64,000 bases of DNA from Candidatus Kaiserbacteria bacterium. Its GTDB lineage: Bacteria > Patescibacteriota > Minisyncoccia > Phycocordibacterales > UBA2100. A model generated the notes under the pieces. It did no database searches, was not told where the DNA came from, and saw nothing but the letters and a program-made list of their open reading frames with translations. Made by a program: the position numbers and the translations under genes. Where the stretch lies: positions 1,837 to 65,836 of the forward strand of contig JACRFI010000016.1 in the NCBI GenBank assembly GCA_016217965.1. The letters run 5' to 3'. This document shows, in pieces, positions 32,599 through 56,647 of the stretch (the first letter of the stretch is position 1; each line of letters starts with the position of its first letter).

Positions 32599-34740
32599 AT
32601 GGCAAGAGACTATCCACTAGAAAAAGTCCGTAACTTTGGGATTGTCGCGCACGTGGACGCGGGCAAAACAACCACATCCGAACGAATTCTGTACTACACC
32701 GGAGAGAGCCATAAGATCGGCGAAGTGCACGAAGGGAACACGGTCACAGACTGGATGGAACAAGAGAGGGAGCGCGGCATCACCATCACCGCCGCTGCCA
32801 TCACATGCTTCTGGAACCCAACGTACATGGGGACGGATATATCGCAGAAAGTCCGCTTCAACATTATTGATACCCCAGGACACATCGACTTTACGTCTGA
32901 AGTGAAGCGTTCGATGCGTGTTCTCGACGGAGCGGTTGTCGTGTTTGACGGCGTTGCAGGCGTTGAACCGCAGTCAGAGACGAACTGGCGCTACGCAGAA
33001 GAAGCAGAAGTGCCGAGAATTTGTTACATCAACAAATTGGACCGCACCGGAGCGTCTTTTGAGAAGTCCTATGCGTCCATTCTTGATAGGCTTTCTACCA
33101 AGGCAGTTCGCCTGCAGATCCCAATCGGCGCTGAGGGAGATTTTGAAGGTGTCGTGGATGTTTTGGAAATGAAAGCGTTCAAATTCGAAGGCGAGATGGG
33201 GAAGAATGTCGTTGCATACGATATCCCGGATAGCCTCAAGGCCGATGCGCAGAAATATCACGATGAGGTGGTAGAACGAATTGTTGAGACTGATGATGCG
33301 ATGATGACGGAATTTCTCGAGGGGAAGAAGCCGTCGCTTGAGGCGCTCAAGAAGCAATTGCGCGCTGCCGTCTGCACGAACAAGCTCTTTCCAGTCCTCA
33401 CGGGATCGTCTCTCAAGAACAAGGGGGTGCAGCGCGTTCTTGATGCGGTTGTTGACTATCTGCCGTCGCCTCTCGATCTTCCATCGGCGAAGGGAATCAA
33501 TACTGATACTGGTGCCGAAGAAACTCGCCCAGCAACCGACGATGGACCGTTTGCTGCGCTTGTATTCAAGCTCCAAGTTGACCCATTCGTCGGCGCTCTC
33601 ACATTCTTCCGCGTATATTCTGGGCATGTTGCTGCGGGGGACACTGTATACAATTCTGCGAACAACAAGAAAGAACGCATTGGGCGCATGGTGCGTTTGC
33701 AGGCGGACAAGCGCGAGGACGTGAAAGAAGTTTTTGCGGGCGAAATTGCTGCATTCGTCGGCATGAAAGAAGTAAAAATTGGAAATACGGTCTGCGACGC
33801 AGAGCATCCAATTGCGCTCGAGAAAATAATCTTCCCGGAACCCGTTGTTTCGATGCGCATCGAGCCGAAGACAAAGGCAGACCAGGAGAAAATGGGCATC
33901 GCACTCTCGCGCCTTTCGGACGAGGACCCGACATTCCGCATCAAATCTGATCCGGAGACCGGAGAGACCATCATTTCCGGAATGGGTGAGCTGCACCTAG
34001 AGATAATCGTCGATCGCATGAAGCGCGAATTTGCAGTTGAAGCGACGACAGGAAAACCGCAAGTTGCGTACCGCGAGACGATAACAGGTACGGCGGATGT
34101 CGAATACAAGCACATCAAGCAGACAGGCGGTCGCGGCCAGTACGGCCATGTGAAGATCCGCATGAAGCCGCTCGAACCAGTCGAGGAGGGAAAAAAGGTG
34201 AAGAACAACGTCGAGCGCGAAGACCATTTCGAATTCATCAACAACATCAAAGGCGGCGTCATCCCGCAGGAATACATCCAGCCCATCAAGAAGGGACTCA
34301 AAGAAGCGATGGATCGCGGCGTTCTCGCGGGCTTTCCCGTTGTTGATGTATCAGTCGATCTCTACGACGGTTCATATCACGAAGTTGACTCGTCCGAGAT
34401 CGCATTCAAACTCGCTGCCATTAATGCATTCCAAGATGCGGCTAAACTCGCGAAGCCTGCACTTCTCGAGCCGATCATGAAATTGGAAGTCGTCACGCCG
34501 GAAAAATTCATGGGCGATGTGACGGGCATGATAAATAGTAAGCGTGGTTCCATAGAGGCTATGGGCGAGCGCGGCCAAGCGCGAGTCATCACCTCCAAAG
34601 TCCCACTTTCGGAGCTTTTCGGATTCACCACACAGCTTCGCTCCGCGACCGAAGGCCGCGGTGTTCCCAACGTCGAATTCTCGCATTACGCCGTTGTACC
34701 GCGGAATGTGGCAGACGAAGTTATTGCAAGCAGAAAGTAG
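32599..34740 (+). CDS. fusA: elongation factor G
   Basis: G-domain 'AHVDAGKTT', 'DTPGH', full five-domain EF-G length 713 aa. Confidence 0.95.
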   Translation: MARDYPLEKVRNFGIVAHVDAGKTTTSERILYYTGESHKIGEVHEGNTVTDWMEQERERGITITAAAITCFWNPTYMGTDISQKVRFNIIDTPGHIDFTSEVKRSMRVLDGAVVVFDGVAGVEPQSETNWRYAEEAEVPRICYINKLDRTGASFEKSYASILDRLSTKAVRLQIPIGAEGDFEGVVDVLEMKAFKFEGEMGKNVVAYDIPDSLKADAQKYHDEVVERIVETDDAMMTEFLEGKKPSLEALKKQLRAAVCTNKLFPVLTGSSLKNKGVQRVLDAVVDYLPSPLDLPSAKGINTDTGAEETRPATDDGPFAALVFKLQVDPFVGALTFFRVYSGHVAAGDTVYNSANNKKERIGRMVRLQADKREDVKEVFAGEIAAFVGMKEVKIGNTVCDAEHPIALEKIIFPEPVVSMRIEPKTKADQEKMGIALSRLSDEDPTFRIKSDPETGETIISGMGELHLEIIVDRMKREFAVEATTGKPQVAYRETITGTADVEYKHIKQTGGRGQYGHVKIRMKPLEPVEEGKKVKNNVEREDHFEFINNIKGGVIPQEYIQPIKKGLKEAMDRGVLAGFPVVDVSVDLYDGSYHEVDSSEIAFKLAAINAFQDAAKLAKPALLEPIMKLEVVTPEKFMGDVTGMINSKRGSIEAMGERGQARVITSKVPLSELFGFTTQLRSATEGRGVPNVEFSHYAVVPRNVADEVIASRK

Positions 34741-34819: not shown

Positions 34820-35875
34820 ATGAGCGATAGTAATCTCAGTCAAAGACAGGCTTCCATACTTGCCAGTATGGGACTTGATACAGACTATTCAGCAGAAAGC
34901 TTGGCGAACTTGTTCGACATTGCTCCTGCCCCAGCGACATTGCGCAGAGACATGCAAAAATTGGAATTACACGGCTACGTAACTCGGCGAGGAGAAAAAA
35001 GGGGAAGGAAATATGCAAAGACGGAACTTGGTGCCCTCTTGAGCCCCTTGGATGCACACGCGTACTTCCTCAAAGAAACAGATGTGCGCCGCGGATTAAA
35101 GACGTATCGTCACGGACTCTGGAATGCCGTACCTGAATCTCTTTTCACCACAGGTGAGCGAGCCGCATTCGCTGCTGCTACCGACATCTATCACGCGCGA
35201 TCGCGCGATATTTCCGAGGTCGTGCGTGCGAAGGAGCTTGAACGCTTCGTGATCGAGCTTTCGTGGAAATCTTCGAGGATCGAAGGCAATACGTATACGC
35301 TTCTTGATACCGAGCGCCTTCTGCGTGAGGGAGTGGAGGCACCCGGGCATGGGAAAGGCGAGGCTATGATGATTCTCAACCACAAGAAAGCGTTCCAGTA
35401 TATCTTGGAATCAAAAAATAAGCGTGAGTTTGTGAATAAGCATTTTGTCGAGGATGTGCATGGCATTCTTGTCGAGAATCTCGGCGTATCACGAGGATTC
35501 AGAAAGGGCGTTGTCGGGGTCACCGGCTCTTCGTATCGGCCTCTCGACATTCCCGCGCAACTGGAAGAAGAGACTGGCGTCTTGTGCCAGGCTGCGGCAC
35601 AGATCAAAGACGCGTATTCGCAAGCACTTCTCATGCTCGTTGGAATAAGTTATATACAGCCTTTTGAAGATGGCAATAAGCGCACCGCGCGACTCATTGC
35701 AAATGCGGTTCTCATTGCGCACGAGAAGGCGCCGCTCTCATATCGAAGCGTCGATGAAACGCTCTATCGCGAAAGTATGCTTACGTTCTACGAACAACTC
35801 TCCATCGTCCCAATGAAAAAGATATTCTCTGATCAATATCTTTTCGCCTGCGAACAGTATCTGAAAAGTTCGTAA
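34820..35875 (+). CDS. Fic/Doc-family protein with N-terminal wHTH-like region and degenerate motif [12 protein letters not shown]
   Basis: Fic/Doc core '[20 protein letters not shown]' (canonical HxFx[DE]GN[GK]R; His replaced by Gln). Confidence 0.7.
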
Positions 35876-35933
35876 AAACGGGTTTTCCGTCAAACACTCC
35901 AGTAGAATCTGCCAGCTTCAAGAGCCTGACCAT

Positions 35934-36081
35934 TGCCAAAGTGCCGCTTTCGGAGCTTTTCGGATTCACCACACAGCTTCGCTCCGCGACCGAAGGCCGC
36001 GCCGTCCCGAACCTTGAGTTCTCGCACTACGTCGTAGTACCACGTAATGTGCAGGAGGAGATAATTGCGTCTCGTAAGTAA
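35934..36081 (+). repeat. fusA 3'-end remnant copy 1 (encodes …[47 protein letters not shown])
   Basis: About 56 nt identical to 34601-34656 of resident fusA then diverged; ends with in-frame stop. Confidence 0.85.
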
Positions 36082-36129
36082 TTCCCAAATACCTGTCCCC
36101 ACCGCGGCCGCCCTGAGCGAAGTCGAAGG

Positions 36130-38412
36130 GTGGCCGCGTGTCATGATGTGTGCATGAACAAAAGCGTTGTAGCGTTTGTGGCAGTCGTCGCGTCGTTTTT
36201 CGTCCCCTTTTTCGCCTCGGCACAAGTTCCTACACCGTCTGCCGGAGGACCGTATTCTGGCGGCGTAAATCCAACCATCAGTTCCCAAAGTGGTACTTCC
36301 GTCGGCGTGTCTATCTCTTCTGTCGGGTCGAACACGTCTATTTCACAATCTTTTGTATGTCCGACGTTGATTCGCACCCTTGTCCGCGGTTCTCGAGGCG
36401 GTGATGTCGCTGGAGTACAAAATTTTCTCATCGCCCAAAAAGATTTGGCGGCAGGCAACAACACCGGCTACTTCGGTACTCTCACTGAAACGGCAGTGAA
36501 ATCGTTCCAGCGAAGAAATAATATAGTCTCAAGTGGCACACCAGGAACGACGGGGTATGGCCTCGTCGGCGCAAAGACACGTGCGGCGATCCAAAGAGCA
36601 TGTGCTGGATCAATGGCCGCACCAACCAATTCGTACTCGTCTCCATCACTAGGTTCGAATTCAGAAATAGACAAACTCCTCGCGCAGATTCAATCGCTTC
36701 AGGCGCAAATGAACCAGGAAGCTAACAAGAGCACTGGAAATTCTTCGGGGACAACGTATGTGCAAGGCTCGTACGCACAAACAAACGCGCCTGTGTATTC
36801 GGAAACGAATTATTACAATCAGGGATCATATACACCCACAGACGACCAGGTCCGACCAGCTTCACCACCGTACTATGGGGTTAACTATTTCGCATCTGGA
36901 TACGGGAATTTCCTCACGGACCAGTTCGATGTGTCAAGGACGCGCATCCAGAACGACATCGGACTCATGCAAAGCATGGGAATCAACGTCGTACGTATAA
37001 GCGTCGCCGGTTTCGCCAACGGGCTTGTGCCATGGACCTACAACCAACCGCGGGGACGAGAATATTTCGACACAGCAAATTGGGAGCTTGCCGGAAACAA
37101 CCTTGCAAAGTTGATCAAGCAATTTAAAGCAGCCCGCATAAAAGTTATTGTGGATTTTGTATCGATAAATTATTTCTTGTTCGCACCGAGCGCGACTGAA
37201 CTCGCCATCCACCCAGTAAGCCAGGCATGCAAAGACGGGTTTGCGTCCGGTTCGATGGGCGTATGGTGGCAGTGCCGGTATCCGAACAGATGGGATGATT
37301 TTGTATGGGACTATACGACCTGGGTGAACGGCATCGTGTGGCTCGTCGAGAATGATTCCGAGGCAGCGTCAAACGTCCTCTACTACGATCCGATCGGAGA
37401 ACTCCAATTTTCGGACCGGACAGGCACCGACATGAAGGCATTCGCGAACATCATTATCGCAAACAACAACATTCCGGCAGGGAAACTTGGCATATCGGTA
37501 CTTAATCCTGAATCGACCACTCCCGCCTCAATCGCGCTTCCGAACCTTAAAACTCTTCTCGATGCGGCAGGCAAAAAACTTTCGTTCATTGATGTGCATT
37601 GTTATCCTGGTATCTCTTGTGCGTTTGGTAGCCAGACTGTTGCCCAGTGGTTTACGGACGCATATACAAATGCGCGGAGATCATTTCCCGCATCTGAAAC
37701 AAAGTTTGTCGTGGGAGAATGGGGCTCCAATTATGATGGTGGAAAAGGCTTGGGCCAAGCGAATTACGATGCACAAGTTGTCAATTGGGCGAAATCCAAC
37801 GGCGATGTCACGGCGCTCGTGCACTGGAATCTCTATGATGACAATCCGAGTTACAACGAATATCACATCGGAGTTGCGCCGACGGCCGGCGTTGCGCAAG
37901 GTACACGAAATACCTATATGGTCCTCGGGACGATGCGCGGGGACTTAATCGATGGTGATTTTGAAAGTGGTATTTCGAAGTGGTTTAACGGCGGCAGTGG
38001 GTCGAACCTAAAGCAGATGCCCATCGAAGCAGTGACGGGTTCGTACTATGGACGCATGCAGGTGACGGCACCCGGACAAAATTGGTTCTGCACGCCAAAT
38101 TTCGTGCTCGCCAATGGCACGCATGTCGCGACCGGCGGTTTCATTCGGACAGCACTTGCAAATGTGACGCTTTCGACCCGATATTTCGATTCAAATTGGA
38201 AACTGATCGGGCAAGATGACATCACGCTTACACAACCAGCGGCTTGGCAGTGGCGGCAAATACAAGAGCAATCGCTGTCAAAACGCGCTACTACGTGGAC
38301 GGGTGCCCCTTATGCTGCACAGGTTTGCTTCGTTTTGAACGGTCCAGCTGGCACATCCGCTACAAATCCGCAGTATCTTGATTTGGATTCGATCACGGTG
38401 CACGATTATTAG
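36130..38412 (+). CDS. secreted peptidoglycan-binding-domain protein with GH5-like TIM-barrel glycoside hydrolase domain
   Basis: Probable true start ATG 36154 (MNKSVVAF…, signal peptide); PG_binding_1-like 'GDVAGVQNFLIAQKDL…GYFGTLTETAVKSFQ'; 'GINVVRISV' and 'VVGEWGSNYDGG' GH5-like strands. Confidence 0.6.
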   Translation: MAACHDVCMNKSVVAFVAVVASFFVPFFASAQVPTPSAGGPYSGGVNPTISSQSGTSVGVSISSVGSNTSISQSFVCPTLIRTLVRGSRGGDVAGVQNFLIAQKDLAAGNNTGYFGTLTETAVKSFQRRNNIVSSGTPGTTGYGLVGAKTRAAIQRACAGSMAAPTNSYSSPSLGSNSEIDKLLAQIQSLQAQMNQEANKSTGNSSGTTYVQGSYAQTNAPVYSETNYYNQGSYTPTDDQVRPASPPYYGVNYFASGYGNFLTDQFDVSRTRIQNDIGLMQSMGINVVRISVAGFANGLVPWTYNQPRGREYFDTANWELAGNNLAKLIKQFKAARIKVIVDFVSINYFLFAPSATELAIHPVSQACKDGFASGSMGVWWQCRYPNRWDDFVWDYTTWVNGIVWLVENDSEAASNVLYYDPIGELQFSDRTGTDMKAFANIIIANNNIPAGKLGISVLNPESTTPASIALPNLKTLLDAAGKKLSFIDVHCYPGISCAFGSQTVAQWFTDAYTNARRSFPASETKFVVGEWGSNYDGGKGLGQANYDAQVVNWAKSNGDVTALVHWNLYDDNPSYNEYHIGVAPTAGVAQGTRNTYMVLGTMRGDLIDGDFESGISKWFNGGSGSNLKQMPIEAVTGSYYGRMQVTAPGQNWFCTPNFVLANGTHVATGGFIRTALANVTLSTRYFDSNWKLIGQDDITLTQPAAWQWRQIQEQSLSKRATTWTGAPYAAQVCFVLNGPAGTSATNPQYLDLDSITVHDY

Positions 38413-38419
38413 TCTTCGC

Positions 38420-38485
38420 TTCGTTCTCGCACTATGCGATTGTCCCAAAAACGTTGCAGATGAAGTGATCGCCTCGCGCAAATAG
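38420..38485 (+). repeat. fusA 3'-end remnant copy 2 (…FSHYAIVPKNVADEVIASRK*, 1-nt frameshift)
   Basis: Matches last about 22 codons of fusA. Confidence 0.75.
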
Positions 38486-38554
38486 AAAACGTCACATGGC
38501 ATAGCCTGAACAATGTCCACAGGCGTCTCCGCTGCCCCATTGAAAAAAGCAAGA

Positions 38555-38562
38555 GGGGGGGG
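38555..38562 (+). repeat. G8 homopolymer tract 13-20 nt upstream of ATG 38575
   Basis: 'aagaGGGGGGGGtagcattgggacATG'. Confidence 0.8.
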
Positions 38563-38574
38563 TAGCATTGGGAC

Positions 38575-39858
38575 ATGAAAAACATCCCACGGGTTGGTGT
38601 GCTTATCAGTGCTATTCTCCTTGCGCCTGCGTTCGCGGCAGCTCAAGACGCGCTCGGAAGTCCTATGCCTTCAATGGGTCCGGGAATAATTTGCCAAGCG
38701 GAAATGAATGCCGCCATTGCGGTCGGTCTGCAAAATAGGGAAAAGGCCGAGGTAAAGGCGCTCGATGCGTGCCTAAAAAATAACGCGTCGACACTACCCA
38801 TGCCCTCAATGACCTCTGAGGCAAGCGACTCTGGCAGCGTAACATCGGGTATTACCCCGAACACGAATGGCAGCGGCGCTTCATGCCCCAAAATTCTTCG
38901 TACGCTTTTCGTCGGCAGCACTGGGGATGACGTGGTGGCATTGCAGGTATTCCTTATTGCGCAAGGCGATCTTGCCGCAGGCAATACCACCGGCTACTTT
39001 GGCGTTCTTACGGAAGCGGCGGTAAAAGCATTTCAGTCGGCGCATGGTATAGAGAACGCTGGCATGGTGGGTCCGAAGACTCGCGCGGCGATCGCGCAAA
39101 TATGCGGCGGTACCGTTTCCACGAACACCCCTTCCTCTAGCGGCGGTTCAACGGGCAATCAATCGCTCATTGATTCGCTTCTACAGCAGATAAAAGTTCT
39201 GCAGGAGCAGATAAAGAATATCTCAGGGAACACAAACACAAACACAAATACGAATACAACGTCAACCAACACCAATACGACATCAACCAATATCAACACA
39301 ACTTCTTCGACTGCCGCGACTCCGCAAACTTTCGACTACATGGCGTCATTCCATTCCGGCCCGCAATCTGGGGGCGACCAGAGCCTGGCGCCGTACTTCG
39401 GCCAGAACCCGTCGGGACCATGGTGGTATGGGTATGCGGATTCCGTAACCGGCGCGACGAAGTTCATGTCGTGGGACGGGACCGTCCCCTCATGGATCGG
39501 CGGCTATGGAGGATTCCCGCGTCTCTACAACTGGGGTGGGTACGTCTACGGCTCGTCGGCAATAATCGTTTGGGTGGCACCGCGTGCGGGTACCGTCACG
39601 ATAGCCGGAAGTGTCTCGCGACAAGGGATTGGCGGGGCTGATGCGACGTGCTCAGGCGCGACGCCGATCGTCGCGTATGTCTATCAGGATGGAAAGGCTT
39701 TGTGGTCGGCGAGCATGATGCCGGGAGATGCTGGCAAAGCGTATTCACTCTCCGGCACAGTGAATCAGGGCAGCAACGTGTCGTTCATCATGCAGCCGGC
39801 AGGTGCAAGCCCGGCCTGCAACATCGTGTACTGGAATCCGACTGTCGTGCTTAAATAA
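38575..39858 (+). CDS. secreted peptidoglycan-binding-domain protein with (TN)n linker
   Basis: Signal peptide 'MKNIPRVGVLISAILLAPAFAAA', PG_binding_1-like 'DDVVALQVFLIAQGDL…GYFGVLTEAAVKAFQ', 'NTNTNTNTNTTSTNTNTTSTN' linker, C-terminal beta domain. Confidence 0.65.
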   Translation: MKNIPRVGVLISAILLAPAFAAAQDALGSPMPSMGPGIICQAEMNAAIAVGLQNREKAEVKALDACLKNNASTLPMPSMTSEASDSGSVTSGITPNTNGSGASCPKILRTLFVGSTGDDVVALQVFLIAQGDLAAGNTTGYFGVLTEAAVKAFQSAHGIENAGMVGPKTRAAIAQICGGTVSTNTPSSSGGSTGNQSLIDSLLQQIKVLQEQIKNISGNTNTNTNTNTTSTNTNTTSTNINTTSSTAATPQTFDYMASFHSGPQSGGDQSLAPYFGQNPSGPWWYGYADSVTGATKFMSWDGTVPSWIGGYGGFPRLYNWGGYVYGSSAIIVWVAPRAGTVTIAGSVSRQGIGGADATCSGATPIVAYVYQDGKALWSASMMPGDAGKAYSLSGTVNQGSNVSFIMQPAGASPACNIVYWNPTVVLK

Positions 39859-39879
39859 AAAGTTCGCATACCCACTAAC

Positions 39880-39945
39880 CCAAAGTTTGATGCTGGGTGC
39901 TGAATTTGGAATTCTCTCACTACGCTATCGTCCCCAGAAATGCCT
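39880..39945 (+). repeat. fusA 3'-end remnant copy 3 (internally deleted; …EFSHYAIVPRN…)
   Basis: 'ccaaagt' junction plus 'gaattctctcactacgctatcgtccccagaaatg'. Confidence 0.65.
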
Positions 39946-40044
39946 GCCCCGTTAGAACTTTAGTTTCTAATGGGGTTGCTAACTAAGTGATAGGCGCGAG
40001 GACGCTCGTATTGACGAATTGGCTAATTGGGCTACTATTGGCGC

Positions 40045-40314
40045 ATGAGCAAGATAACCATGCCTACATTTGCGGCGAGCGAGGCGAAGAATAACTTCGG
40101 GAGGCTTATCGATGCCGCGCAGCGCTCGCCTGTCGCGATCAAGCGGCGCGGCCGCTCCGTTGCGTTCGTCATCTCGCCGTCAGACATGGAGACGATTGAG
40201 GATCTATGGCTGGGTATGCAAGCGCATAAAGCGATGCGGCGAGGTAAATTCTTGAGCGCTGAGGAAACGAAGAAATATATGGACGGTGTGCTGAAGCACC
40301 ATGCTCGACGTTAG
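40045..40314 (+). CDS. Phd/YefM-family antitoxin
   Basis: 'MPTFAASEAKNNFGRLIDAAQRSPVAIKRRGRSVAFVISPSDMETIEDL' YefM fold signature; overlaps toxin gene by 14 nt. Confidence 0.7.
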   Translation: MSKITMPTFAASEAKNNFGRLIDAAQRSPVAIKRRGRSVAFVISPSDMETIEDLWLGMQAHKAMRRGKFLSAEETKKYMDGVLKHHARR

Positions 40315-40576
40315 GATACTCGACGAGGCGCAGGAAATCCTGGATGCGCTATCAGAAAAACATCGGCATCAAATTGTCAAAAAGATCGCACTGCTCGCGC
40401 AGCAGCCATATCACCCGCGTTCGAAACAGTTGGAAGGATATGCGCCGCTTCGACGCATGTCTTCTGGAGAATATCGCATTGTGTATTTCATTGAGGGCAA
40501 AGTTCTGAAAGTTCCGCTTATCGATAAGCGAGGGGATAACAAAGTATACCGACGACTTAAGCAGTTATTCGGATGA
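40301..40576 (+). CDS. RelE/ParE-family toxin
   Basis: 91 aa, 'PLRRMSSGEYRIVYFIEGKVLKV' RelE/ParE C-terminal core. Confidence 0.75.
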   Translation: MLDVRILDEAQEILDALSEKHRHQIVKKIALLAQQPYHPRSKQLEGYAPLRRMSSGEYRIVYFIEGKVLKVPLIDKRGDNKVYRRLKQLFG

Positions 40577-40605
40577 TAAATTGCTTTGAACGTCGTTATC
40601 GAAAA

Positions 40606-40773
40606 AAAGCCTGCTCTCCGAAATGTTCGGATTTACAACACAATTACGGTCGTTGACGGAGGGAAGATCTGTCCCAAACCTCGAGTTTTCTCACTACCCC
40701 AGTAGGTGATTGTACTCAATCAGCTGTTGTCCCTCGAAATGTTGCGGATGAAGTTATTGCGGCGAGGAAATAG
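40606..40773 (+). repeat. fusA 3'-end remnant copy 4 (…[26 protein letters not shown]-[28-bp insert]-VVPRNVADEVIAARK*)
   Basis: Translated similarity to EF-G C-terminus ending in in-frame TAG. Confidence 0.8.
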
Positions 40774-50298: not shown

Positions 50299-50529
50299 AT
50301 GACTCAAAAAGTTCTTAAGGTCGGCTCTTCGGCAGCGGTCACGATACCAAAGAAGTCTCTTGCCGAACTCGGCCTCAAGATCGGCGATCGCGTGACTTTG
50401 ACCGTCAATAGGGAGCATAAGAGTATCGTGGTTCAGCCATCTGTGTCTGTGGACGCCGAGACGGTGCAATGGGCGCGAGATTTCATCGAAAAATATCGCT
50501 CTGCGCTCGAGGCGTTGGCGCGTCAGTAG
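50299..50529 (+). CDS. AbrB/MazE/SpoVT-type antitoxin (Phd-equivalent for Doc)
   Basis: 'KVLKVGSSAAVTIPKKSLAELGLKIGDRVTL' swapped-hairpin motif; 2-nt spacing to toxin gene. Confidence 0.65.
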   Translation: MTQKVLKVGSSAAVTIPKKSLAELGLKIGDRVTLTVNREHKSIVVQPSVSVDAETVQWARDFIEKYRSALEALARQ

Positions 50530-50530
50530 C

Positions 50531-50932
50531 ATGCGATACCTCTCAGCGGAGGAATTACTAGTCCTCCATGCGCTCGTTGTTGATGAGACAGGCGGTTCGC
50601 ATGGCGTGCGTGATACGGCGCTTCTCGCGTCAATTGCGCACAAGCCGCAAGCAAAATTTGATGGGAAAGATCTATACCCAACTATTTTTCTGAAAGCGGC
50701 GATACTTCTCGAAGCGGTTGCTAATTACCACGTTTTTATCGACGGGAACAAACGTACGTCGTTCATTGCGGCTGCGAGATTCTTGTTCGTGAATGGATAT
50801 AACATTACGGCAGACAACGTAGATGTCGAGAAGATTGTAGTTGCTGTCGCAATGAAGAAGTTAGCGATTGGGGAGCTTGCGGAATGGCTTAAAGAAAATA
50901 GTTCGAGTATCTACATCCATGCCAAAAAATGA
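50531..50932 (+). CDS. doc: Doc (death-on-curing) Fic-family toxin
   Basis: 'HVFIDGNKRTSF' Doc motif HxFxDGNKR. Confidence 0.8.
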   Translation: MRYLSAEELLVLHALVVDETGGSHGVRDTALLASIAHKPQAKFDGKDLYPTIFLKAAILLEAVANYHVFIDGNKRTSFIAAARFLFVNGYNITADNVDVEKIVVAVAMKKLAIGELAEWLKENSSSIYIHAKK

Positions 50933-51335: not shown

Positions 51336-51478
51336 ACGGCACTGTTTGCTATAGCGCTTCCATTATATGCGCTAGGGGGCAATAGTTGAGATCCCGGTGG
51401 GGATAGCGAATTCTCCTGGAGAAGATGAGATACATCGGTGACACCTCAGACGTCCAGATTTGAGGCAGAATTGGCGGC

Positions 51479-52726
51479 GTGATTAGCAGCCTCACGCACC
51501 CATATATGGCACTCGCAGCCTCTGTTCGGCAGGTTAACCTGTGGCTCGTCCCAGAGGTCACACTCCTCTCCACTCATGAGCGTTGGAGAAAGCAGGCAGA
51601 GATACTAAGGCTCTCCAAAGAAGCCCGCATACGTCTCGAGTGGTTCATCTGGCACAAAGAACACGGAAAGAATGCCTCCAAGACCGCGCGTCACTTCGGC
51701 ATCTCACGTCAGTGCTTCCACACGTGGAAGAAGAGATTCGATGCAGTCAATCTTCGCTCGCTCGAGACACACGATCGCGCTCCGAGGCGGGTGAGGCAGA
51801 AAGAGATCACTCCGGAAGAGGAAGGCAGGGTCATCATGCTCCGACACGCGCACATCCGCTGGGGCAAGATGAAGATCGCGAAGGTGTACGAGGCAACATA
51901 CAGAAAGAAGATCTCTGCATGGAAGGTACAGTACACGATCAAGAAGAATGCTCTGTACTATCATCCGAAAAAGAACGCACAGACACACGCCAAACGGAAA
52001 CGTTCGAAAGAGAAGAAGCGCATCACAACACTCCACAAGAAGCCCTTCCCCGGCTTCCTCATTGCACTCGATACCATCGTCCTGTGGATCGGCAACCAGA
52101 GGCGGTACGTGTTCACGGCGATCGATACGGTCTCCAAGATCGCCTTTGCGCGAATGTATACGACCAAAAGCTCGAAGAACGCAGCGGATTTCGTGAAGCG
52201 CATGGTGTATCTCTTGGATCATGAGGTCTGGAATGCGGGGCATGACAACGGGAGCGAGTTCCACAAACATTTCCAAGCAACGGTCACACAGCTCGGTCTT
52301 GGCGACTATTGGAGCCGTGTGAAGACCCCCACCGACAACCCGATCAACGAACGCTTCAACAGGACACTGCAAGAAGAGTTCATCGCACTCGGACATCTCA
52401 CTGACGACACCGAGAGATTCAATCACGAACTCACAAACTGGCTCATCGAGTACACATTCGTGCGTCCGCATCAGTCGCTTGGATACGAAACTCCTTGGCA
52501 GTATTATTCCAAGGCCGCCAAAGTGTCACCGATGTACTCGTCTCGTACATCTCCTTGTTTTTTGCGGGAAGATAGTGCATACTCCCTCGCGTTCCTTTAC
52601 ATATGCCTGCAGCAAAGACGAAAAAAACAGCGAAGTCTCCGCGCGCTAAGAAAGGCGATGCAGGAGCACATCGTCTGCGCATCAAAGTGCGCGCGTATGA
52701 ACATGGGGTTCTCGATACGTCGGTGA
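51479..52726 (+). mobile_element. IS481-like (IS3-superfamily) DDE transposase gene; 3' boundary uncertain, ORF overlaps rpsJ start
   Basis: N-terminal HTH, rve core with D ('ALDTIV'), D ('AGHDNGSEF'), E ('NERFNRTLQEE'); last about 40 codons are probably read-through. Confidence 0.65.
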
Positions 52727-52971
52727 AGCAGATAATCGATACAGCGGCTCGCTACAGCGCGACTGTTGTGGGTCCAGTTCCTCTTCCTATAGACATAAAA
52801 AAGTACACGGTGAATCGCGCGGCATTTATCGACAAAGATTCTCGCGAGCAATTTGAAATGCGCATCCACAAGCGCATGATAGACATTTTAAATCCAGCGC
52901 CGAAAGTCATCGAAGCGCTCACAAATATCGACCTTCCTTCAGGAGTTTCAATAGACGTGAAGATGATGTAG
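52603..52971 (+). CDS. rpsJ: 30S ribosomal protein S10 with Lys-rich N-terminal extension
   Basis: 'HRLRIKVRAYEH…GPVPLP…[12 protein letters not shown]' S10 core. Confidence 0.85.
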   Translation: MPAAKTKKTAKSPRAKKGDAGAHRLRIKVRAYEHGVLDTSVKQIIDTAARYSATVVGPVPLPIDIKKYTVNRAAFIDKDSREQFEMRIHKRMIDILNPAPKVIEALTNIDLPSGVSIDVKMM

Positions 52972-52977
52972 CAGGTG

Positions 52978-53646
52978 CTACTTTATAATGCTTTGCGCCA
53001 GTGTTTTTGCTTCTGCTTGACAAAATGTGCGCCATTCCTTTGGATCCAAAGCGTTGATCATTCTCGGCAAATCCTCGGCTCCTTCGGATTTTAGAAGTTG
53101 CGCACTCATCTGCAGCGGATCAAGATGATGATCAAATTTGATCTGCGCTTTACGCATGAGGTCGGACATGCTCCACTCTGGCTTCTCGCGTAAGATGAAA
53201 TAGAGATCGATAAAATCGCGCGCGCGGGGCTTCTGATAGATCGTAAACACTTTATTCACTGCGATATCCAAAAGGCTATCGACGCGAAGGGCCCCGATCG
53301 TCGGCCCCTTTTCTATAGCTGGGAATGGGAAATAGGTGAATTCTGTCTTAATGACATCATCGCCGATATGGAGGAAGAAGAGGTTGCGGTTGAAACTTTG
53401 TTCAAAGGTGAACGAATCGATACTAAGGGAACCCTGCAATTTCTTGAGGAAGACCGATATCGCCTGCGGGTCGAATTCGTGTTCCGTGAAAAAATCGAGA
53501 TCTTCAGAATAACGATGATGCAAGTAAAATTCAGCAAGAGCCGTTCCGCCGGAGAGAATAAATGCAGCTGTAATCGCTCTCTCGCGGGCAATTGCTGAGA
53601 GAACTTTCTGTTGGTTCGCAGAAAGAATTGTGGGCATGCTACTCAA
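52978..53646 (-). CDS. AbiEii/DUF1814-family nucleotidyltransferase (type IV TA toxin-like)
   Basis: 'FILSGGTALAEFYLHHRYSEDLDFF' (GGTAL + S-x-D-L-D-F signature). Confidence 0.65.
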   Translation of the reverse strand: MSSMPTILSANQQKVLSAIARERAITAAFILSGGTALAEFYLHHRYSEDLDFFTEHEFDPQAISVFLKKLQGSLSIDSFTFEQSFNRNLFFLHIGDDVIKTEFTYFPFPAIEKGPTIGALRVDSLLDIAVNKVFTIYQKPRARDFIDLYFILREKPEWSMSDLMRKAQIKFDHHLDPLQMSAQLLKSEGAEDLPRMINALDPKEWRTFCQAEAKTLAQSIIK

Positions 53647-53824
53647 GCGCGAGTGCGAGCGCCTTGCGTTTCCACGGATCTATAATGATTGCATCCCATT
53701 CACTACGCAGCACTTCAGCGGATATTTTTTCATCCCCGATACCGAAGTTTATCCGCTGTTCGAGGCTCCACGTAGAGCTTGGGGCATTTTGAACCGACCA
53801 GTGTTTTTTTATCATTACCCGCAT
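53639..53824 (-). CDS. small ORF upstream of AbiEii-like gene (possible truncated partner/antitoxin)
   Basis: 61 aa overlapping toxin start by 8 nt; no domain. Confidence 0.25.
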   Translation of the reverse strand: MRVMIKKHWSVQNAPSSTWSLEQRINFGIGDEKISAEVLRSEWDAIIIDPWKRKALALALE

Positions 53825-53854
53825 TATACCACATATTGAGCCGTCTTTTCCGGA

Positions 53855-54586
53855 TTATTCTCTCGCAAGTTTCAGGAGCGGCTCTTGCCAATCAAAGCAG
53901 GTCTCTCGGTCTTCGAGAATTTTGAACTGCCCTAGACATGAAGGTTCGAGCGCAGCGAATTGCTCCAACATCTTTACCGCAGACTCGATAAATCCGCCTA
54001 CAGTGCCGTCTGAATCATCAACGCCGCCTTGGCACAATTTCTTATCGAGCTTGAGTAGGGTTTGTATAACCATTCGTGCCGCTTCTTCACAGACGGGAAG
54101 TTTGGAGAAGACAGCTGACAGGCGGTTGCATCCTTCGGCGAGTCCGCCTTGATACGCGAACCACATTCGCGAAGGTCCGCGATATGCTTTGATGAATTTC
54201 ATTACGACTTTGATGGCGGATTGCGTTGAAAGCAATTCGTCTTTGCTTAGTGGTCCGATTCTCCCGCTGCAGAGAGGTTCACTTTGCATTTCCTTGTCGG
54301 TCTCTGAGAGAGGTTGGCCTGCTGCGGCAGCATGTATGGCAACTGCGACCATATGCTTACAGAGCTCTTCTTTTTGACCGACATAGCAATTACATTCTCC
54401 CACATCGAATTTCTCACTCGACACCCATACTTCGTATGAGTTACTGCCAATTACAACAGCAGAGAAAATGCCGTCAGTTTTCTTGCATTGTGTGACCTTG
54501 CCAAGCTCATACAAATAAACAGCCCTCGACCATGTGGGGTTTCCCGTTGCGAACTTTATCTTTGGCACGTCATATGCGGGAACCAT
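53855..54586 (-). CDS. SWIM zinc-finger domain protein
   Basis: '[15 protein letters not shown]' CxCx9CxH SWIM signature. Confidence 0.55.
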
Positions 54587-54619
54587 ACTGTCAATCTACC
54601 AGCACTTTGCACATTCTCC

Positions 54620-54763
54620 ATCAATAAAGATTCGCGCGAACAATTCGAAATGCGCATCCACAAGCGCATGACAGATATTTTAAATCCAGCGCCGAAAGTC
54701 ATCGAAGCGCTCACAAATATAGATCTCCCATCAGGTGTTTCAATCGACGTCAAGATGATGTAG
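54620..54763 (+). repeat. rpsJ 3'-end remnant (…[47 protein letters not shown]), direct repeat of 52828-52971
   Basis: About 90% nt identity over 144 bp. Confidence 0.85.
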
Positions 54764-54790
54764 CTGTTCCCACAGAGCAACCCAGTCCAT

Positions 54791-56647
54791 CTATTCGGTG
54801 GGTGCTACGTACATGCCAAACATTCCCATAGCACCTCGTATAGGCACCTCAAACCCATTGTCATACACGGCCTCTATTGAGAGCACGTCTTCCTTTTTAA
54901 GAGCGATCTCAGTTGCGTAGTGAGGAGTGTCATAACGATAGGGATTATCATTTGATCTTACCGTCTCGAAGACGGACAAAAGTTCACCGTTACGTCTTAT
55001 GGCAACGTTCTTGCCGCTTTGCCAACCATGCAAATGAGCTCCCATATACACAATTGTCGCATTGTGCTCGATGATCATCCGGTTTTGGCCCTTCTCTACC
55101 CAACCAGGACCGCCATATACATATCCTTTCGAATGCGGCGGCACTGTGAACACATGAGTCTGGGAAGCACACGCATCCTCGTCAAGCTTGAGGACGTGAA
55201 AATAAACCGGAGTTGCTCGCTCAGGGTTGCTAACGCTCTTTAGTTTAACGGTGGCAAACACGTCCTCAAAGGTTCCGCCTGGTCCGATGGGGGGTAGTGG
55301 ATTGTGCAGCGCTACGGCGAGCTGGAGCCGAGTGCCTTTTATGATCGTAAGCGCATAATCTTGCGGAAGAGAAATCTTTCTCGTGTGCATCTGATCCTGG
55401 CCGACGGCAGCGAGTTCCCTCCCGTAAAACTGCGGGCAAATGACGTCCGGTTTATCGATGTCAACCAATAGAGCATGATGCAGAATAATATCCGGCGCAT
55501 TATGTATCTCAAACTCTATCTCTGAGACGTTTACATCATCCGGAACCGTATATATGGGAGAATATATTTCATAATGGTGGCCTTTATCTATTGCTGAATC
55601 TCCAGCAACGTGGGGATGTGAAGATAGCTCTGGCAGATGTTGCGTTTCTAGAACGATTGTCGGACGGTGAGAGACGAAAAAACCGCTAAGAATTACGATT
55701 GCCAGGACACATGTTCCCATCAGTACGTACGCCAACTTCCTCGTGGACCGGCTAAACTCGGAGATGTGCTTCCAAATAGCATCTGGTATCCAACGTGAGT
55801 CGAACAGGAAGAGGAAGTATAGCAGCATCCCCAGGACGACTTCCGTAAGATCAAGAGTGGCCAGCACATATATAAACATGAGTACCCAAAGCAGCCATAT
55901 GATGCTCCGGGTTCTCTCCCAGAATATCAGTGGAAGTGAGAGTGTGTATGTTGATGCGGCGGCCCATGTTTGCCCGGCGATGGTCCAGTGTGGAAGTGAT
56001 TGAAGATAGTGCACGAACCAATAGTCGAATGCGATCGGTTGATGAAGGATATAATACATTGCCGTCCCGTTTTGCCACGTCTCTGAAAATAACCTATCGA
56101 TGCCGCTTGCAGTAAACGAGAGCCCAAGCACGAACCATGCGCCCCAATACACGCCCCACGGCATATACCATTCCTCTGGACCTCTCCTTCCAAAAAGAAA
56201 TCGATCGGTCGACAAAGGCTCTCTGGACGGAATGATGCAAAGGAATATGAGAAGCAATCCCGTAAAAGGAAGCGAGGGGTCTTCGGTTAGTACATTCCGC
56301 CCGAAGAGCATGGAGAGTATCAGCCACGTAATAAGTGCATTCGGAAGCCGAAAAAAGCCGATAATTATGCAGATCACGCTCAAAAACAGGACGGCAAATA
56401 CGAGAGTGATCGTTTCAGGAGAATCGAATACGTTAAGAAAATTCGGAAGGTAACCGTATATGTAACTGATGACTGGGTCTGGCAACATGCCGACGGATGT
56501 ATACAATTCGTATCGGTAGGGAAACTCTCGGATCGCGTAGAAGAGAAGGTAGATGCCGAACAGGGCGCGCCACAAAGAGAATTGTACTGGAGCGTATGTT
56601 GCTACAAGGGGTATCGTCATGAAGCGCATGCGATCTCGTATTGCCAC
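54791..56647 (-). CDS. polytopic membrane protein, HTTM-like N-terminal domain + extracytoplasmic C-terminal domain
   Basis: About 8 TM helices in first 300 aa, Trp/Tyr-rich loops; beta-rich C-terminus. Confidence 0.45.

Follow-up and report, generated by a model that had tools for sequence, protein, structure and literature searches.

Among the described systems that resemble the locus considered here, the insertion with long target duplication (ILTD) of restriction-modification (RM) complexes, which are small gene units of a selfish or addictive kind, is characterized by long, variable direct repeats (30 to ~420 bp) which often lie over the stop or start of a gene; neither a transposase nor an integrase takes part, the hosts are mostly naturally competent bacteria, and it has been hypothesised that the units insert, amplify and are released again by way of the repeats (PMC2853133). 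Streptococcal IMEs and ICEs are bordered by short or long direct repeats and undergo tandem accretion with decayed elements (PMC5357655). In natural transformation, Campbell-type insertion-duplication and homology-facilitated illegitimate recombination allow a single homologous anchor to integrate foreign DNA (PMC3240628). Among the CPR bacteria, a Saccharibacterium has been shown to undergo comEC-dependent natural transformation and to recombine the incoming DNA by homology, and the com genes are conserved across this group (PMC10633639). The present locus, from a member of the Kaiserbacteria (CPR) with a tiny genome, lies downstream of an intact rpsJ gene in the window, that is, the whole 64-kb stretch of DNA that was analysed. 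In our judgement, held with about even confidence, it is the scar of a recombinase-free insertion-duplication, in which DNA of related lineages entered by homologous recombination with conserved gene ends as its anchor, and addiction cargo would stabilise the insert. We know of no earlier account, and literature searches gave none, in which such a process acts naturally and recurrently on the 3' ends of essential genes and brings in addiction modules.

When the window is compared with itself by blastn, the 3' end of rpsJ pairs with a second copy further downstream (145 nt, 90.3% identity, E=3e-51; Table 1), which confirms the repeat of about 90% announced in a preliminary description of this DNA; a repeat-finding run paired 52828-52981 with 54620-54773 (154 nt at 88%). 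The similarity sets in at codon I75 (ATC, 52828) and ends 1 nt past the TAG stop, and tblastn matched amino acids 68-122 of the protein at 54584-54760 (E=8e-27). The insert between the copies, of 1,647 nt (~1.65 kb), holds the AbiEii-like and SWIM genes noticed earlier (matches in Table 1); both of these minus-strand genes are present as described, but a third ORF between them (53639-53824, minus strand) had been overlooked. The hairpin at 52968-52981 covers two convergent stops, the TAG of rpsJ and the CTA of AbiEii, and the left edge of the cargo lies there, merely 6 nt past the rpsJ stop. Within the remnant, the antisense promoter-like sequence at 54716-54743 is the best consensus match of the region and is oriented toward the SWIM gene, the small ORF and AbiEii, while its counterpart in copy 1 reaches 9/12 (GATATT); this hints at a possible co-option of the sequence as a promoter.

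Table 1. Features of the window, with their positions, strands and the evidence for each.
Feature	Position	Strand	Evidence
fusA (EF-G), anchor gene of the parallel array	32599..34740	+	Pfam EF-G domains
fusA-side cassette array, four fusA remnants	34820..40770	+	tblastn, blastn, Pfam, codon comparison
Fic-HTH, fusA array	34820-35875	+	Pfam
fusA remnant 1	35935-36078	+	tblastn, blastn
PG_binding protein, between fusA remnants 1 and 2	36130-38412	+	Pfam
fusA remnant 2	38421-38482	+	tblastn, blastn
PG_binding protein, between fusA remnants 2 and 3	38575-39858	+	Pfam
fusA remnant 3	39897-39947	+	tblastn, blastn
Phd, fusA array	40027-40314	+	Pfam
ParE, fusA array	40301-40576	+	Pfam
fusA remnant 4	40596-40770	+	tblastn, blastn
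MazE-Doc toxin-antitoxin pair, inserted after tuf	50299..50932	+	Pfam, tblastn
rpsJ, intact, ribosomal protein S10, 122 aa	52603..52971	+	Pfam Ribosomal_S10 6.3e-30, profile positions 1-98 of 98
Repeat copy 1, functional rpsJ 3' end (codons 75-122, stop and 1 nt)	52828..52972	+	blastn self-match, alignments
Hairpin GTAGC-AGGT-GCTAC, then T-rich tail	52968..52981	+	Terminator-like scan, sequence
Cargo gene 1, AbiEii-family nucleotidyltransferase	52978..53646	-	Pfam PF08843 1.2e-17; PADLOC AbiEii 1e-14
Cargo gene 2, small ORF, 58-61 aa	53639..53824	-	Called as a 58-aa gene in L081
Cargo gene 3, SWIM-like protein, 243 aa, NCBI HY969_03310	53855..54586	-	Pfam SWIM 4.3e-4; PADLOC PDC-S62 N-terminus 8.4e-14
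Spacer upstream of the SWIM gene, cargo/remnant junction at its end (...ATTCTCC/ATC...)	54587..54619		Alignments
Repeat copy 2, rpsJ 3' remnant (codons 75-122 and stop) without the 5' part	54620..54764	+	blastn, tblastn, codon comparison
Promoter-like TTGAAA-16-TATATT (10 of 12), antisense within the remnant	54716..54743	-	Consensus scan

The likeness to ILTD is that the rpsJ insert lies between direct repeats longer than 30 bp (145 nt), stays well under 20 kb and is not linked to mobility genes. However, the cassettes described here carry toxin-antitoxin, Abi, and SWIM or cell-wall-binding proteins, with no R or M genes in the rpsJ insert; the host bacteria belong to the CPR; the 3' ends of essential translation genes serve as anchors and are reused, with arrays of up to four remnants; and the repeats are two diverged functional alleles and not a duplication of the resident target. 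ILTD itself is reportedly also to be attributed to Nobusato et al. 2000, Gene 259:99.

AbiEii-family nucleotidyltransferases are the toxins of type IV toxin-antitoxin and abortive-infection systems. A protein identical to that of the window (P0001) is annotated by NCBI as belonging to the AbiEii/AbiGii toxin family and has 2,891 homologs. As in AbiE systems, the nucleotidyltransferase gene (PF08843) is directly preceded by a gene which overlaps it; in the window, however, this gene encodes only 58-61 aa and lacks an AbiEi match (wHTH, COG5340-type), and its equivalent in related cassettes is DUF6922-like. The small ORF has no family match of its own in Pfam, NCBIfam or PADLOC, but shows 57% identity to the ORF that immediately precedes the AbiEii homologs in L082-L085 (genes of 51-70 aa are called there); the DUF6922 assignment of the equivalent gene in other lineages is weak in our own scans and appears as a precomputed Pfam match in L094. 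The preliminary description had proposed a search for an AbiEi partner elsewhere, whereas the order of these two genes, conserved in the homologs, makes the adjacent small ORF the likely cognate partner of AbiEii and an antitoxin candidate. The Pfam score of the SWIM-like protein, 4.3e-4, barely passes the cut-off; of its 1,191 homologs, the 120 best are 52-72% identical to it. Its AF2 model (pLDDT 94.7) does not have the fold of a recombinase or nuclease, and nothing in the PDB matches it at E<=0.001, ZSWIM8 being the best of the weak structural matches. The gene adjoins type I RM genes in L089-93, and the protein is associated with defence islands.

It is important to distinguish this insertion from the absence of the S10 operon. 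No rplC was found downstream of rpsJ within the window, so that the absence of the operon noted previously stands, but its connection with the insertion does not: of the 12 closest relatives whose sequence extends far enough past rpsJ, not one has rplC as the next gene, and only one of these (L011) has rplC at all, 3.8 kb from rpsJ. The closest clade as a whole thus lacks the operon at this place, and the insertion is not the cause. The parallel that had been drawn with fusA is well founded, as four remnants of this gene follow it in the window. In remnant 1 the changed codons are 13 synonymous and 7 nonsynonymous, and in remnant 2 they are 10 and 2, with 12 of 14 amino acids identical despite only 55% nucleotide identity; remnants 2 and 4 are frameshifted. 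The rnhA fragment cited in the same context is a weak match (E=0.5). Beside the MazE-Doc pair after tuf, which is homologous to the pairs after rpsJ in L010 and L094 (tblastn), a tuf remnant was looked for and not detected.

The differences between the two rpsJ ends bear on their origin. In the window, the copies show 12 nucleotide differences over 45 clearly homologous codons, and 11 of the 12 changed codons are synonymous, with a single nonsynonymous one. Random substitution would give 8.7 nonsynonymous codons, and none of 100,000 simulations was as low as the observed value; a model of duplication in situ, with one copy constrained and the other neutral, would give 7.3 (P(<=1)=5e-5). Five genomes pooled yield 57 synonymous versus 5 nonsynonymous changes (P ~1e-12 to 1e-17), and in L009 and L010 even the stop codons differ between gene and remnant. 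This almost exclusively synonymous divergence indicates that the copies come from two functional rpsJ alleles, one of them foreign to the locus, and the ends are therefore not duplicated in place, as had been supposed. Within each genome, gene and remnant have lineage-specific residues in common (A/E/D at position 99, N116 in L094), which indicates that the donors were close relatives, as homologous recombination requires. The rpsJ of the window is 64-94% identical to the rpsJ at 80 Paceibacteria loci, and the relatives are at most 89% identical in nucleotides.

The same architecture is found elsewhere. In seven further assemblies of Paceibacteria (L006, L009, L010, L027, L086, L087/88 and L094) a gene-end remnant lies behind rpsJ, tuf or fusA, which bears out the recurrence suspected from the window. 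The cargo is unlike from case to case and consists mostly of toxin-antitoxin modules: Fic at tuf (L006), a Rossmann protein at fusA (L027) and, at rpsJ, DCC1 with MNT-HepT (L009), MazE-Doc (L010), AbiEii with SWIM (L087), or these last two plus MazE-Doc (L094). A toxin domain of this type (Fic/Doc, AbiEii, HepT or ParE) is present in 9 of the 12 remnant-delimited cargo blocks, and the cassettes measure 0.6-2.3 kb, with 1-3 genes each. The left edges of the remnants vary (rpsJ codons 75, 90, 91, ~92 and ~93; fusA codons 664-700), while on the right all of them extend past the stop codon and pass into the native DNA beyond, an asymmetry which a crossover inside the 3' homology segment would produce. 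In L027 and L009 a cargo ORF continues into the remnant, and this resembles an illegitimate junction more than a designed att site. The longest identical runs of gene and remnant differ by genome (codons 95-109, 90-100, 100-104 and 118-123), and the remnant alignments revealed no identical core common to independent insertions.

Among the loci of the 80 relatives, only L009 and L010 have a genuine second rpsJ end, the apparent one in L028 being a scaffold-gap artefact (identical copies separated by 100 N). Downstream of rpsJ, synteny with the window was seen in none of the 80, and neither an exact-junction scan nor downstream-neighbour searches gave an empty site or a donor genome. Expanded junctions (>400 nt) were counted between fusA and tuf in 26 of 34 loci, between tuf and rpsJ in 9 of 67, and between rpsJ and rplC in 28 of 55, with very heterogeneous cargo, so the junctions after these three genes are insertion hotspots across Paceibacteria. 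Most of the expanded junctions in relatives lack a detectable remnant, which indicates that further insertion routes operate too. The cargo census relied on crude ORF calling and on the best 25 families per set.

No machinery dedicated to this insertion was recovered. Pfam searches gave no integrase in the 12 remnant-delimited blocks, and none among the matches listed (best 25 families per set) when the strong matches of 208 cargo ORFs were considered; XerC and lambda Int had no tblastn match in 1.35 Mb (the window and 98 loci, from 80+ genomes), serine recombinases being covered by the Pfam lists only. No relaxase or excisionase lies in or near any cassette. Inverted repeats of at least 20 nt are absent from 51000-57000 and none flank the cassette. 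With regard to attC-like structures, both copies fold no better than shuffled sequence (DNA folding z of -0.6, -0.26 and +0.16), and an Rfam search returned nothing relevant. A DNA transposon with target-site duplication was also considered and rejected, given the lack of inverted repeats and the length and allelic nature of the 145-nt repeat. The earlier proposal of a mechanism that 'targets' housekeeping genes thus finds neither a recombinase, nor a shared core, nor an attC-like structure in its favour, and homologous recombination anchored in the most conserved DNA is a simpler reading than dedicated targeting machinery.

According to the insertion-duplication that we favour, DNA from a related member of the Paceibacteria would bring its own rpsJ 3' end together with the small ORF, AbiEii and the SWIM-like gene, and the incoming end would recombine with the resident one, either by a single (Campbell-type) crossover of a circularised fragment or by a double crossover of a donor segment already bearing rpsJ ends on both sides. 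The product would in either case be an intact rpsJ, the cargo, a 5'-truncated rpsJ end and the native downstream DNA. The anchor would be the most conserved DNA between diverged lineages, namely the ends of the translation genes fusA, tuf and rpsJ. An element-encoded recombinase would not be needed, RecA of the host together with its competence machinery (ComEC, type IV pilus, RecJ) being enough; the window itself encodes ComEC, PilB/PilC-like proteins and RecJ. Successive rounds would build arrays such as that at fusA. Because the repeats can recombine it out, an insert between duplicated ends would be inherently unstable, and toxin-antitoxin or abortive-infection cargo, which would penalise its loss, would preferentially be seen with a remnant still recognisable. 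We infer in this way the route by homologous recombination and natural transformation, the circular intermediate and the stabilisation of the cassette by addiction.

Some features are those of Campbell-type integration, in which one crossover with a circle leaves a copy of the anchor at either side of the insert, the gene is spared only when its 3' end belongs to the anchor, and the second junction is illegitimate, as with the cargo ORFs that are cut by, or read into, the remnants described here; this process is, however, known from laboratory and experimental settings, whereas its use in these bacteria would be natural and recurrent. On the side that speaks against insertion-duplication, the homology arms, of ~90-145 nt and 10-23% diverged, make a poor RecA substrate; the grouping of left edges at rpsJ codons 90-93 could mean a preferred cleavage or crossover site; and the stop-codon edge of L027 is what one would expect of an att segment that an element carries and that is formed so as to restore the gene.

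These last traits lead to the main, if rather doubtful, alternative, i.e., the scar of a site-specific integration. The attP with the rpsJ 3' end would have been carried by an integrative element, or by a cis-mobilisable derivative without an integrase, and the tyrosine or serine recombinase that served it would be encoded at another place or have been lost since; the repeats would be attL and attR, and tandem accretion would have formed the fusA array. Direct repeats of a gene 3' end that reach the exact gene end are the classical signature of such events, and streptococcal IMEs and ICEs use the 3' ends of rpsI, rplL, rpmG and rpmE (PMC5357655). Integrase islands in the 3' ends of tRNA or protein genes likewise come to lie after an intact conserved gene, ribosomal-protein genes included, form arrays by successive events, and supply the gene 3' end from the incoming DNA, the displaced end becoming the distal direct repeat (PMC5357655), which agrees with an intact rpsJ and a distal copy of another allele. 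An element-borne gene end would also account for the synonymous-only divergence. Five of the rpsJ-remnant left edges cluster within ~4 codons (90-93), the right edge of L027 falls exactly at the stop codon though ~95 nt of its repeat are 100% identical, the SWIM/remnant junction is common to two lineages, and a recombinase acting in trans could be encoded beyond the 64-kb window. Against this reading stand the negative integrase searches (the 12 blocks, the strong Pfam matches listed for the 208 ORFs, and 1.35 Mb from 80+ genomes), the lack of relaxase and excisionase, the small size of the cassettes (0.6-2.3 kb, 1-3 genes), left edges that are not fixed (rpsJ codon 75 versus 90-93; fusA 664-700), the lack of an identical core across independent events, the cargo ORFs that extend into the remnant in L027 and L009, and the use of three different genes as sites for unrelated cargo.

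It is unlikely that the structure is instead old and vertically inherited, its copies having been repeatedly overwritten by gene conversion and allelic replacement of rpsJ, in which case the synonymous pattern would be uninformative on the insertion. This explanation draws on the SWIM-like gene, which abuts an rpsJ remnant in four lineages (SWIM proteins 60-72% identical), with the same SWIM-cargo/rpsJ-remnant junction in the window and L086; on a 44-nt block that is perfectly identical within copies otherwise 10-23% diverged; and on the lineage-specific residues common to gene and remnant. However, conversion by the own gene followed by neutral decay predicts ~60% nonsynonymous changes versus the 8% seen, the junctions of L087 and L094 differ from that of the window, and the older fusA remnants decay by frameshift, which implies that remnants are not generally maintained. 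Moreover, this view, like the best explanation, has recourse to homologous recombination between lineages at the gene end, and is not a fully separate mechanism.

Duplication in situ, whether a long target-site duplication (transposition-like or by break repair) or a tandem duplication with a decaying downstream copy, is very improbable. Direct repeats do flank the insert and an IS481-like element is close by (51431-52536), but this element lies upstream of rpsJ, outside the repeat, and has 14-nt inverted repeats of its own; there are no inverted repeats around the cassette, the stop codons differ between the copies in L009 and L010, and the synonymous bias (P=5e-5 in the window, ~1e-12 or lower when pooled) effectively refutes the model. 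That the repeat is an artefact of assembly, which the preliminary description had named as its own refutation, or of binning, with contig ends duplicated or two strains joined in a chimera, deserves just as little credence. The source is a metagenome-assembled genome, and the L028 case is indeed such an artefact, but the copies of the full repeat differ at 14 positions, each being joined to unique sequence, and the architecture recurs in seven other assemblies from different studies. An independent Logan contig (L081, run SRR12113407, 1,808 bp) is 100% identical to window 52899-54706, cargo/remnant junction included, so both junctions and both alleles are supported by reads; its ends lie inside the 44-nt stretch common to both copies, as expected of a k=31 graph break. 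A diversity-generating retroelement or an attC-type integron cassette, superficially suggested by a ~140-nt, ~90% VR/TR-like repeat at a gene 3' end and by gene-plus-repeat arrays, is refuted by 12 mismatches that involve all bases at third codon positions and are not adenine-specific, by the absence of a reverse transcriptase in the window (its only RVT_3 match and the RNase H match probably fall in one protein, taken to be that of rnhA, 24643-25077) and of IntI, and by copies that fold like shuffled sequence (z -0.6 to +0.2) with nothing relevant in Rfam.

Insertion-duplication may also be extended, tentatively, to a recombinase-free mobile cassette of the Paceibacteria, of a kind not described before, in which cargo (as a rule a module of addiction or defence) and a 3' fragment of a highly conserved essential gene, rpsJ, fusA or tuf, would form a natural 'knock-in vector' with a portable homology arm. 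The unit would loop out by recombination between two gene ends, be taken up as naked DNA through competence and be re-inserted in any relative by host homologous recombination. Its 'attachment site' would be constantly refreshed from functional host genes, so that remnants would look coding, and toxin-antitoxin cargo would prevent loss; the SWIM/codon-75 junction of two lineages and the four-remnant fusA array would then be direct traces of this cycle. More speculatively, the invariant 31-codon C-terminal S10 mini-ORF present in every rpsJ remnant, or the antisense promoter-like sequence, might have a function of its own.

CPR bacteria (Patescibacteria) have tiny genomes with few recognisable mobile elements and a variable gene content that includes defence systems, and the route by which they acquire genes is poorly understood. 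A fraction of the Paceibacteria inserts bears a clear scar, namely a foreign allele of the 3' end of the anchor gene. In practical terms, such scars yield pseudo-'partial rpsJ/fusA' genes in annotations, and assemblies break at them, e.g., L081, L086 and L028. If insertion-duplication is the correct explanation, it would provide a concrete and testable mechanism of gene gain in the CPR through competence and RecA; it would extend the 'long target duplication' behaviour of RM complexes to toxin-antitoxin and abortive-infection modules; and genetic tools for CPR bacteria might be designed with a single short arm taken from a conserved gene end.

The 3' end of rpsJ is found twice in the window, and the two copies bracket the cargo. 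In a repeat search of the window they form a direct repeat of 154 nt with 88% identity (52828-52981 and 54620-54773), while blastn of the window against itself confirms the rpsJ repeat of the preliminary description with 145 nt at 90.3% (52828-52972 and 54620-54764, E=3e-51). In the alignment, the two sequences are similar from rpsJ codon I75 to one base past the TAG stop. Both minus-strand cargo genes described earlier, AbiEii-like and SWIM-like, are present, but a third gene, a small ORF, also lies between the copies. Compared with the AbiE system, the AbiEii gene is indeed a member of its Pfam family; however, its likely partner is not the AbiEi that had been proposed for checking but the small adjoining uncharacterised ORF, which is DUF6922-like in relatives. 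The GC content of the cargo (46-50%) is similar to that of the flanks, and by this comparison there is no compositional foreignness.

An assembly artefact, that is, a collapsed or duplicated contig end, was rejected, since an independently assembled Logan contig of the same population (L081, 1,808 bp, run SRR12113407) reproduces window positions 52899-54706 at 100%, so that reads support the junctions as well as both alleles. This contig ends inside a 44-nt stretch common to both copies, with a 16-nt end overlap, as expected for k=31. In a consensus scan of the region, the strongest sigma70-like match was TTGAAA-16-TATATT (10/12; minus strand, 54716-54743); it lies within the rpsJ remnant, antisense to it, and is oriented towards the SWIM/AbiEii genes. 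The -10 box of this promoter-like sequence is better than its counterpart in copy 1 owing to a "synonymous" difference of copy 2, ATC to ATA. An Rfam scan of 50000-57500 returned only sub-threshold chance matches near the tuf terminator. On the other side of the gene, 67 nt upstream of the rpsJ start, lies an IS481-like element (rve / HTH transposase, 51431-52536) with perfect 14-nt inverted repeats, whose transposase ORF has no stop within the element and which has no homolog in the 98 other loci; it is a separate event.

Features of the window and left edges of clustered rpsJ remnants in loci of relatives (handles beginning with L; locus coordinates). Handles beginning with P are protein homologs.
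Feature	Position	Strand	Remark
rnhA	24643-25077		RNase H, 144 aa
fusA	32599-34740	+	anchor of the remnant array
fusA remnant 1	35935-36078		after Fic-HTH, before PG_binding protein
fusA remnant 2	38421-38482		between two PG_binding proteins
fusA remnant 3	39897-39947		after second PG_binding protein, before Phd-ParE pair
fusA remnant 4	40596-40770		after Phd-ParE pair
rpsJ	52603-52971	+	complete S10 gene, Pfam 6e-30
AbiEii-family nucleotidyltransferase	52978-53646	-	Pfam 1e-17; PADLOC 1e-14
small ORF, 58-61 aa	53639-53824	-	between AbiEii and SWIM-like gene
SWIM-like protein, 243 aa	53855-54586	-	Pfam SWIM 4e-4; PADLOC candidate system PDC-S62 8e-14
NCBI entries identical to window proteins			P0001, P0121, P0241; locus tags HY969_033xx
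rpsJ remnant left edge, L009	1879		
rpsJ remnant left edge, L010	3550		
rpsJ remnant left edge, L086	~75		
rpsJ remnant left edge, L087	6115		
rpsJ remnant left edge, L094	5484		

The differences between the two copies are of a particular kind. Over 45 clearly homologous codons there are 12 nucleotide differences, and 11 of the 12 changed codons are synonymous at the third position, the remaining one being I to T. Random substitution is expected to produce 8.7 nonsynonymous codons (a value as low as the observed one did not occur in 100,000 simulations), and an explicit model of in-place duplication followed by decay of the remnant 7.3 (P(<=1)=5e-5). Between gene and remnant, the relatives have 10 synonymous and 1 nonsynonymous changes (L009), 14 and 2 at a nucleotide identity of only 77% (L010), 11 and 0 (L087), and 11 and 1 (L094); pooled with the window, this amounts to 57 against 5, with P about 1e-12 to 1e-17. 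In a codon-by-codon comparison of four genomes, 4/4 nonsynonymous changes were located in the remnant. Stop codons are unlike between gene and remnant in L009 and L010, and lineage-specific residues are common to gene and remnant in each genome (NP[A/E/D]PK; N116 in L094). The predominance of synonymous differences indicates that the copies diverged while each still belonged to a functioning rpsJ gene, in lineages that are related but distinct. To judge from these sequences, either one of them was brought in from outside or recombination later replaced the resident one. When the 5' part and each copy were compared by blastn with 80 relatives, no identity exceeded 89%; each copy is nearer to the other one than to anything in the relatives, and neither stands out as native in this comparison. 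In-situ duplication is thus ruled out, as is a transposon-type target duplication, which was tested at the rpsJ cassette and rejected because the copies diverged as functional alleles. Two rpsJ ends do bracket the cargo, as had been described, but they are different functional alleles and not the product of duplication in place. A diversity-generating (DGR) origin was also rejected (mismatches not A-specific, no RT).

The architecture, first described as recurrent from the window, is borne out at rpsJ, tuf and fusA in other lineages. In a survey by rpsJ in which a single genome represented each species (80 Kaiserbacteria/Paceibacteria loci, each searched with its own gene tails), downstream same-strand remnants were found for rpsJ in L009 (cargo: a DCC1-like protein and MNT-HepT) and L010 (MazE-Doc), for tuf in L006 (Fic), and for fusA in L027 (a Rossmann-fold protein), where a repeat of about 95 nt, 100% identical, stops exactly at TAA. 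A "remnant" in L028 (2489-2644) was excluded as a scaffold-gap artefact, two identical copies with exactly 100 N between them, and is a caution for automated scans seeking such scars. Three more lineages were found through the contexts of SWIM-like homologs: L086, where SWIM directly adjoins the rpsJ fragment, L087/88 (rpsJ, DUF6922-like+AbiEii, AbiEii, SWIM, remnant) and L094 (rpsJ, MazE-Doc, AbiEii+DUF6922, SWIM, remnant). Every remnant includes the last codon and the stop, followed by unrelated downstream DNA, and no 5'-end remnant was found for any window gene. The left edges vary (rpsJ codons 75, 90, 91, about 92 and about 93; fusA codons 664-700), and five rpsJ edges fall within about 4 codons (90-93) around the M92 ATG despite differing adjacent cargo. 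A 31-codon mini-ORF from M92 is intact in every rpsJ remnant, and in L009 the HepT stop overlaps this ATG (ATGA).

Absence of the S10 operon after rpsJ, observed correctly in the preliminary description, is a clade trait and not peculiar to the window: the 12 closest relatives (rpsJ at least 80% identical and enough downstream sequence; complete chromosome L003 among them) all lack rplC directly after rpsJ, and only L011 has rplC at all, 3.8 kb away. Across the class, junctions are expanded to more than 400 nt in 28/55 loci for rpsJ>rplC, 26/34 for fusA>tuf and 9/67 for tuf>rpsJ. The gap cargo is very heterogeneous (69 Pfam families in 116 ORFs and 47 in 92 ORFs, nearly all singletons), in a census by crude ORF calling and Pfam, with wrong-strand ORFs in places (e.g., L010) and the best 25 families listed per set, that gives no basis for enrichment statistics. 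The fusA, tuf and rpsJ junctions are general insertion hotspots, and the remnant-bearing inserts are their recent, recognisable subset. The MazE-Doc pair after tuf in the window (50299-50932), which is followed by no tuf remnant (best E=2.6), has homologs directly after rpsJ in L010 (2908-3492) and L094 (7227-7850), at 52-58% and 41-64% amino acid identity, respectively; one kind of cassette is therefore found at different conserved-gene junctions across lineages. Immediately downstream of rpsJ, L014 carries an AbiEii homolog (10783-11199, minus strand) and L002 a MazE homolog (6511-6621), neither with a detectable remnant, so that the same cargo types occur in the hotspot with and without scars. 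An empty site or donor genome was not found in junction, downstream-neighbour and synteny searches: the window has no downstream synteny with relatives (80 loci), metagenome contigs yielded 0 matches to the exact remnant/downstream junction and no relatives of the 618-aa downstream neighbour, which in the protein collection matches only itself and one distant entry, and the exact EF-Tu of the window was not found in the contig index.

The fusA remnants noticed earlier are present downstream of fusA, four of them, in an array (34595-40770) ordered Fic-HTH, remnant 1, PG_binding, remnant 2, PG_binding, remnant 3, Phd-ParE, remnant 4. Remnant 2 retains 55% nucleotide identity and matches 12/14 amino acids; it and remnant 4 carry frameshifts, which indicates that older scars decay. 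Remnants are shorter or more decayed farther from fusA, consistent with serial insertion beside the functional gene. The "rnhA fragment" was unconfirmed at this level, the very weak match to the rnhA N-terminus (24468-24515, E=0.5) lying upstream of rnhA. Elsewhere in the window, a 1.09-kb direct repeat (43774-44857 and 47599-48680, 77% nucleotide identity) joins the C-terminal parts of ORF 43337-44857 (no Pfam match) and a ricin-lectin protein (47073-48680), and looks like a C-terminal domain duplicated or exchanged within the fusA-tuf island. The adjoining ORFs 13230-13862 and 13879-15411, with 50% N-terminal similarity over about 54 aa, are probably tandem paralogs.

The main rival explanation, though a rather unlikely one, is that an integrase acting in trans or since lost integrated these inserts site-specifically, like the streptococcal IMEs that integrate in rpsI, rplL and rpmG and show tandem accretion (PMC5357655). 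In its favour are the right edge lying exactly at the stop codon even in the 100%-identical repeat of L027, left edges that partly cluster at codons 90-93, and the junction of the SWIM upstream region with codon 75 common to the window and L086 (L087 and L094 have other junctions). Nevertheless, no recombinase was found in the 12 remnant-delimited cargo blocks, nor among the strong Pfam matches listed for 208 cargo ORFs or for the remainder of the window; with XerC and lambda Int as queries, tblastn gave no match in 1.35 Mb (window and 98 loci), and independent events have no identical core in common. The proposed mechanism "targeting" housekeeping gene ends accordingly found no support. The SWIM-like protein, suspected of being the recombinase as a remnant neighbour in four lineages, was rejected, having no such fold and being absent from other events: its AF2 model (pLDDT 94.7), a SWIM beta-sheet with a helical domain, shows neither a nuclease nor a recombinase fold and matches nothing significantly in the PDB. 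It belongs to a large, uniform family of Paceibacteria (1,191 homologs; the best 120, P0121-P0240, at 52-72% identity), with members that adjoin type I RM genes (L089-93) and a match to the N-terminus of PADLOC PDC-S62, and this uncharacterised 243-aa protein may be defence-related. Integron attC sites were rejected as well, the repeats being without unusual secondary structure (z from -0.6 to +0.2).

Among described phenomena, the insertion with long target duplication (ILTD) of restriction-modification (RM) systems comes closest: its direct repeats are long and variable, mobility genes are lacking, the hosts are competent and the mechanism is unexplained (Nobusato 2000; Furuta 2010, PMC2853133), and the repeats often span gene stops (PMC2853133). 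The rpsJ insert resembles it in repeat length and in lacking mobility genes, but it carries no RM cargo and involves no true duplication of the resident target. With integrase-type islands it shares the restored target gene, but not the integrase or the fixed core. The rpsJ scar, akin to ILTD and 3'-end integration, bears an informative foreign-allele signature and addiction-module cargo.

Recombinase-free, homology-anchored acquisition is the best explanation, and we give it an even chance. A crossover within the 3' homology segment would produce the variable left edge, the complete right edge into native DNA, the intact essential gene and the two alleles, either by Campbell-type integration of a circular fragment (gene end plus cargo) or by double crossover with a donor segment on which two gene ends flanked the cargo beforehand. 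As the homology must reach the stop to keep the essential gene intact, selection would filter for the observed picture. It is in conserved translation genes that near-identical DNA extends furthest between diverged lineages, which would explain the use of fusA, tuf and rpsJ. In L027 and L009 a cargo ORF is joined to the remnant so that reading continues into it, as expected of an illegitimate junction. That the structure is old and its copies were repeatedly overwritten by allelic recombination seems distinctly improbable, and this view overlaps with homology-anchored acquisition.

Among the ORFs within 1-31160, the window encodes ComEC (Competence + DUF4131), T2SSE, T2SSF and RecJ, the T2SSE/T2SSF products being type IV pilus-type ATPase and platform proteins (PilB/PilC-like). 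In homology-anchored acquisition, this host transformation and recombination machinery could serve as the route. In a Saccharibacterium, transformation with homologous recombination has been shown to depend on comEC, and conservation of com genes extends across CPR (PMC10633639; see also PMC12455944). Fic/Doc, AbiEii, HepT or ParE domains are found in 9/12 remnant-delimited cargo blocks, and such addiction modules would guard an unstable, repeat-flanked insert against being recombined out. The feature is a recombination scar left where an essential gene ends and a cassette was acquired, and scars of this kind recur within the CPR class concerned.
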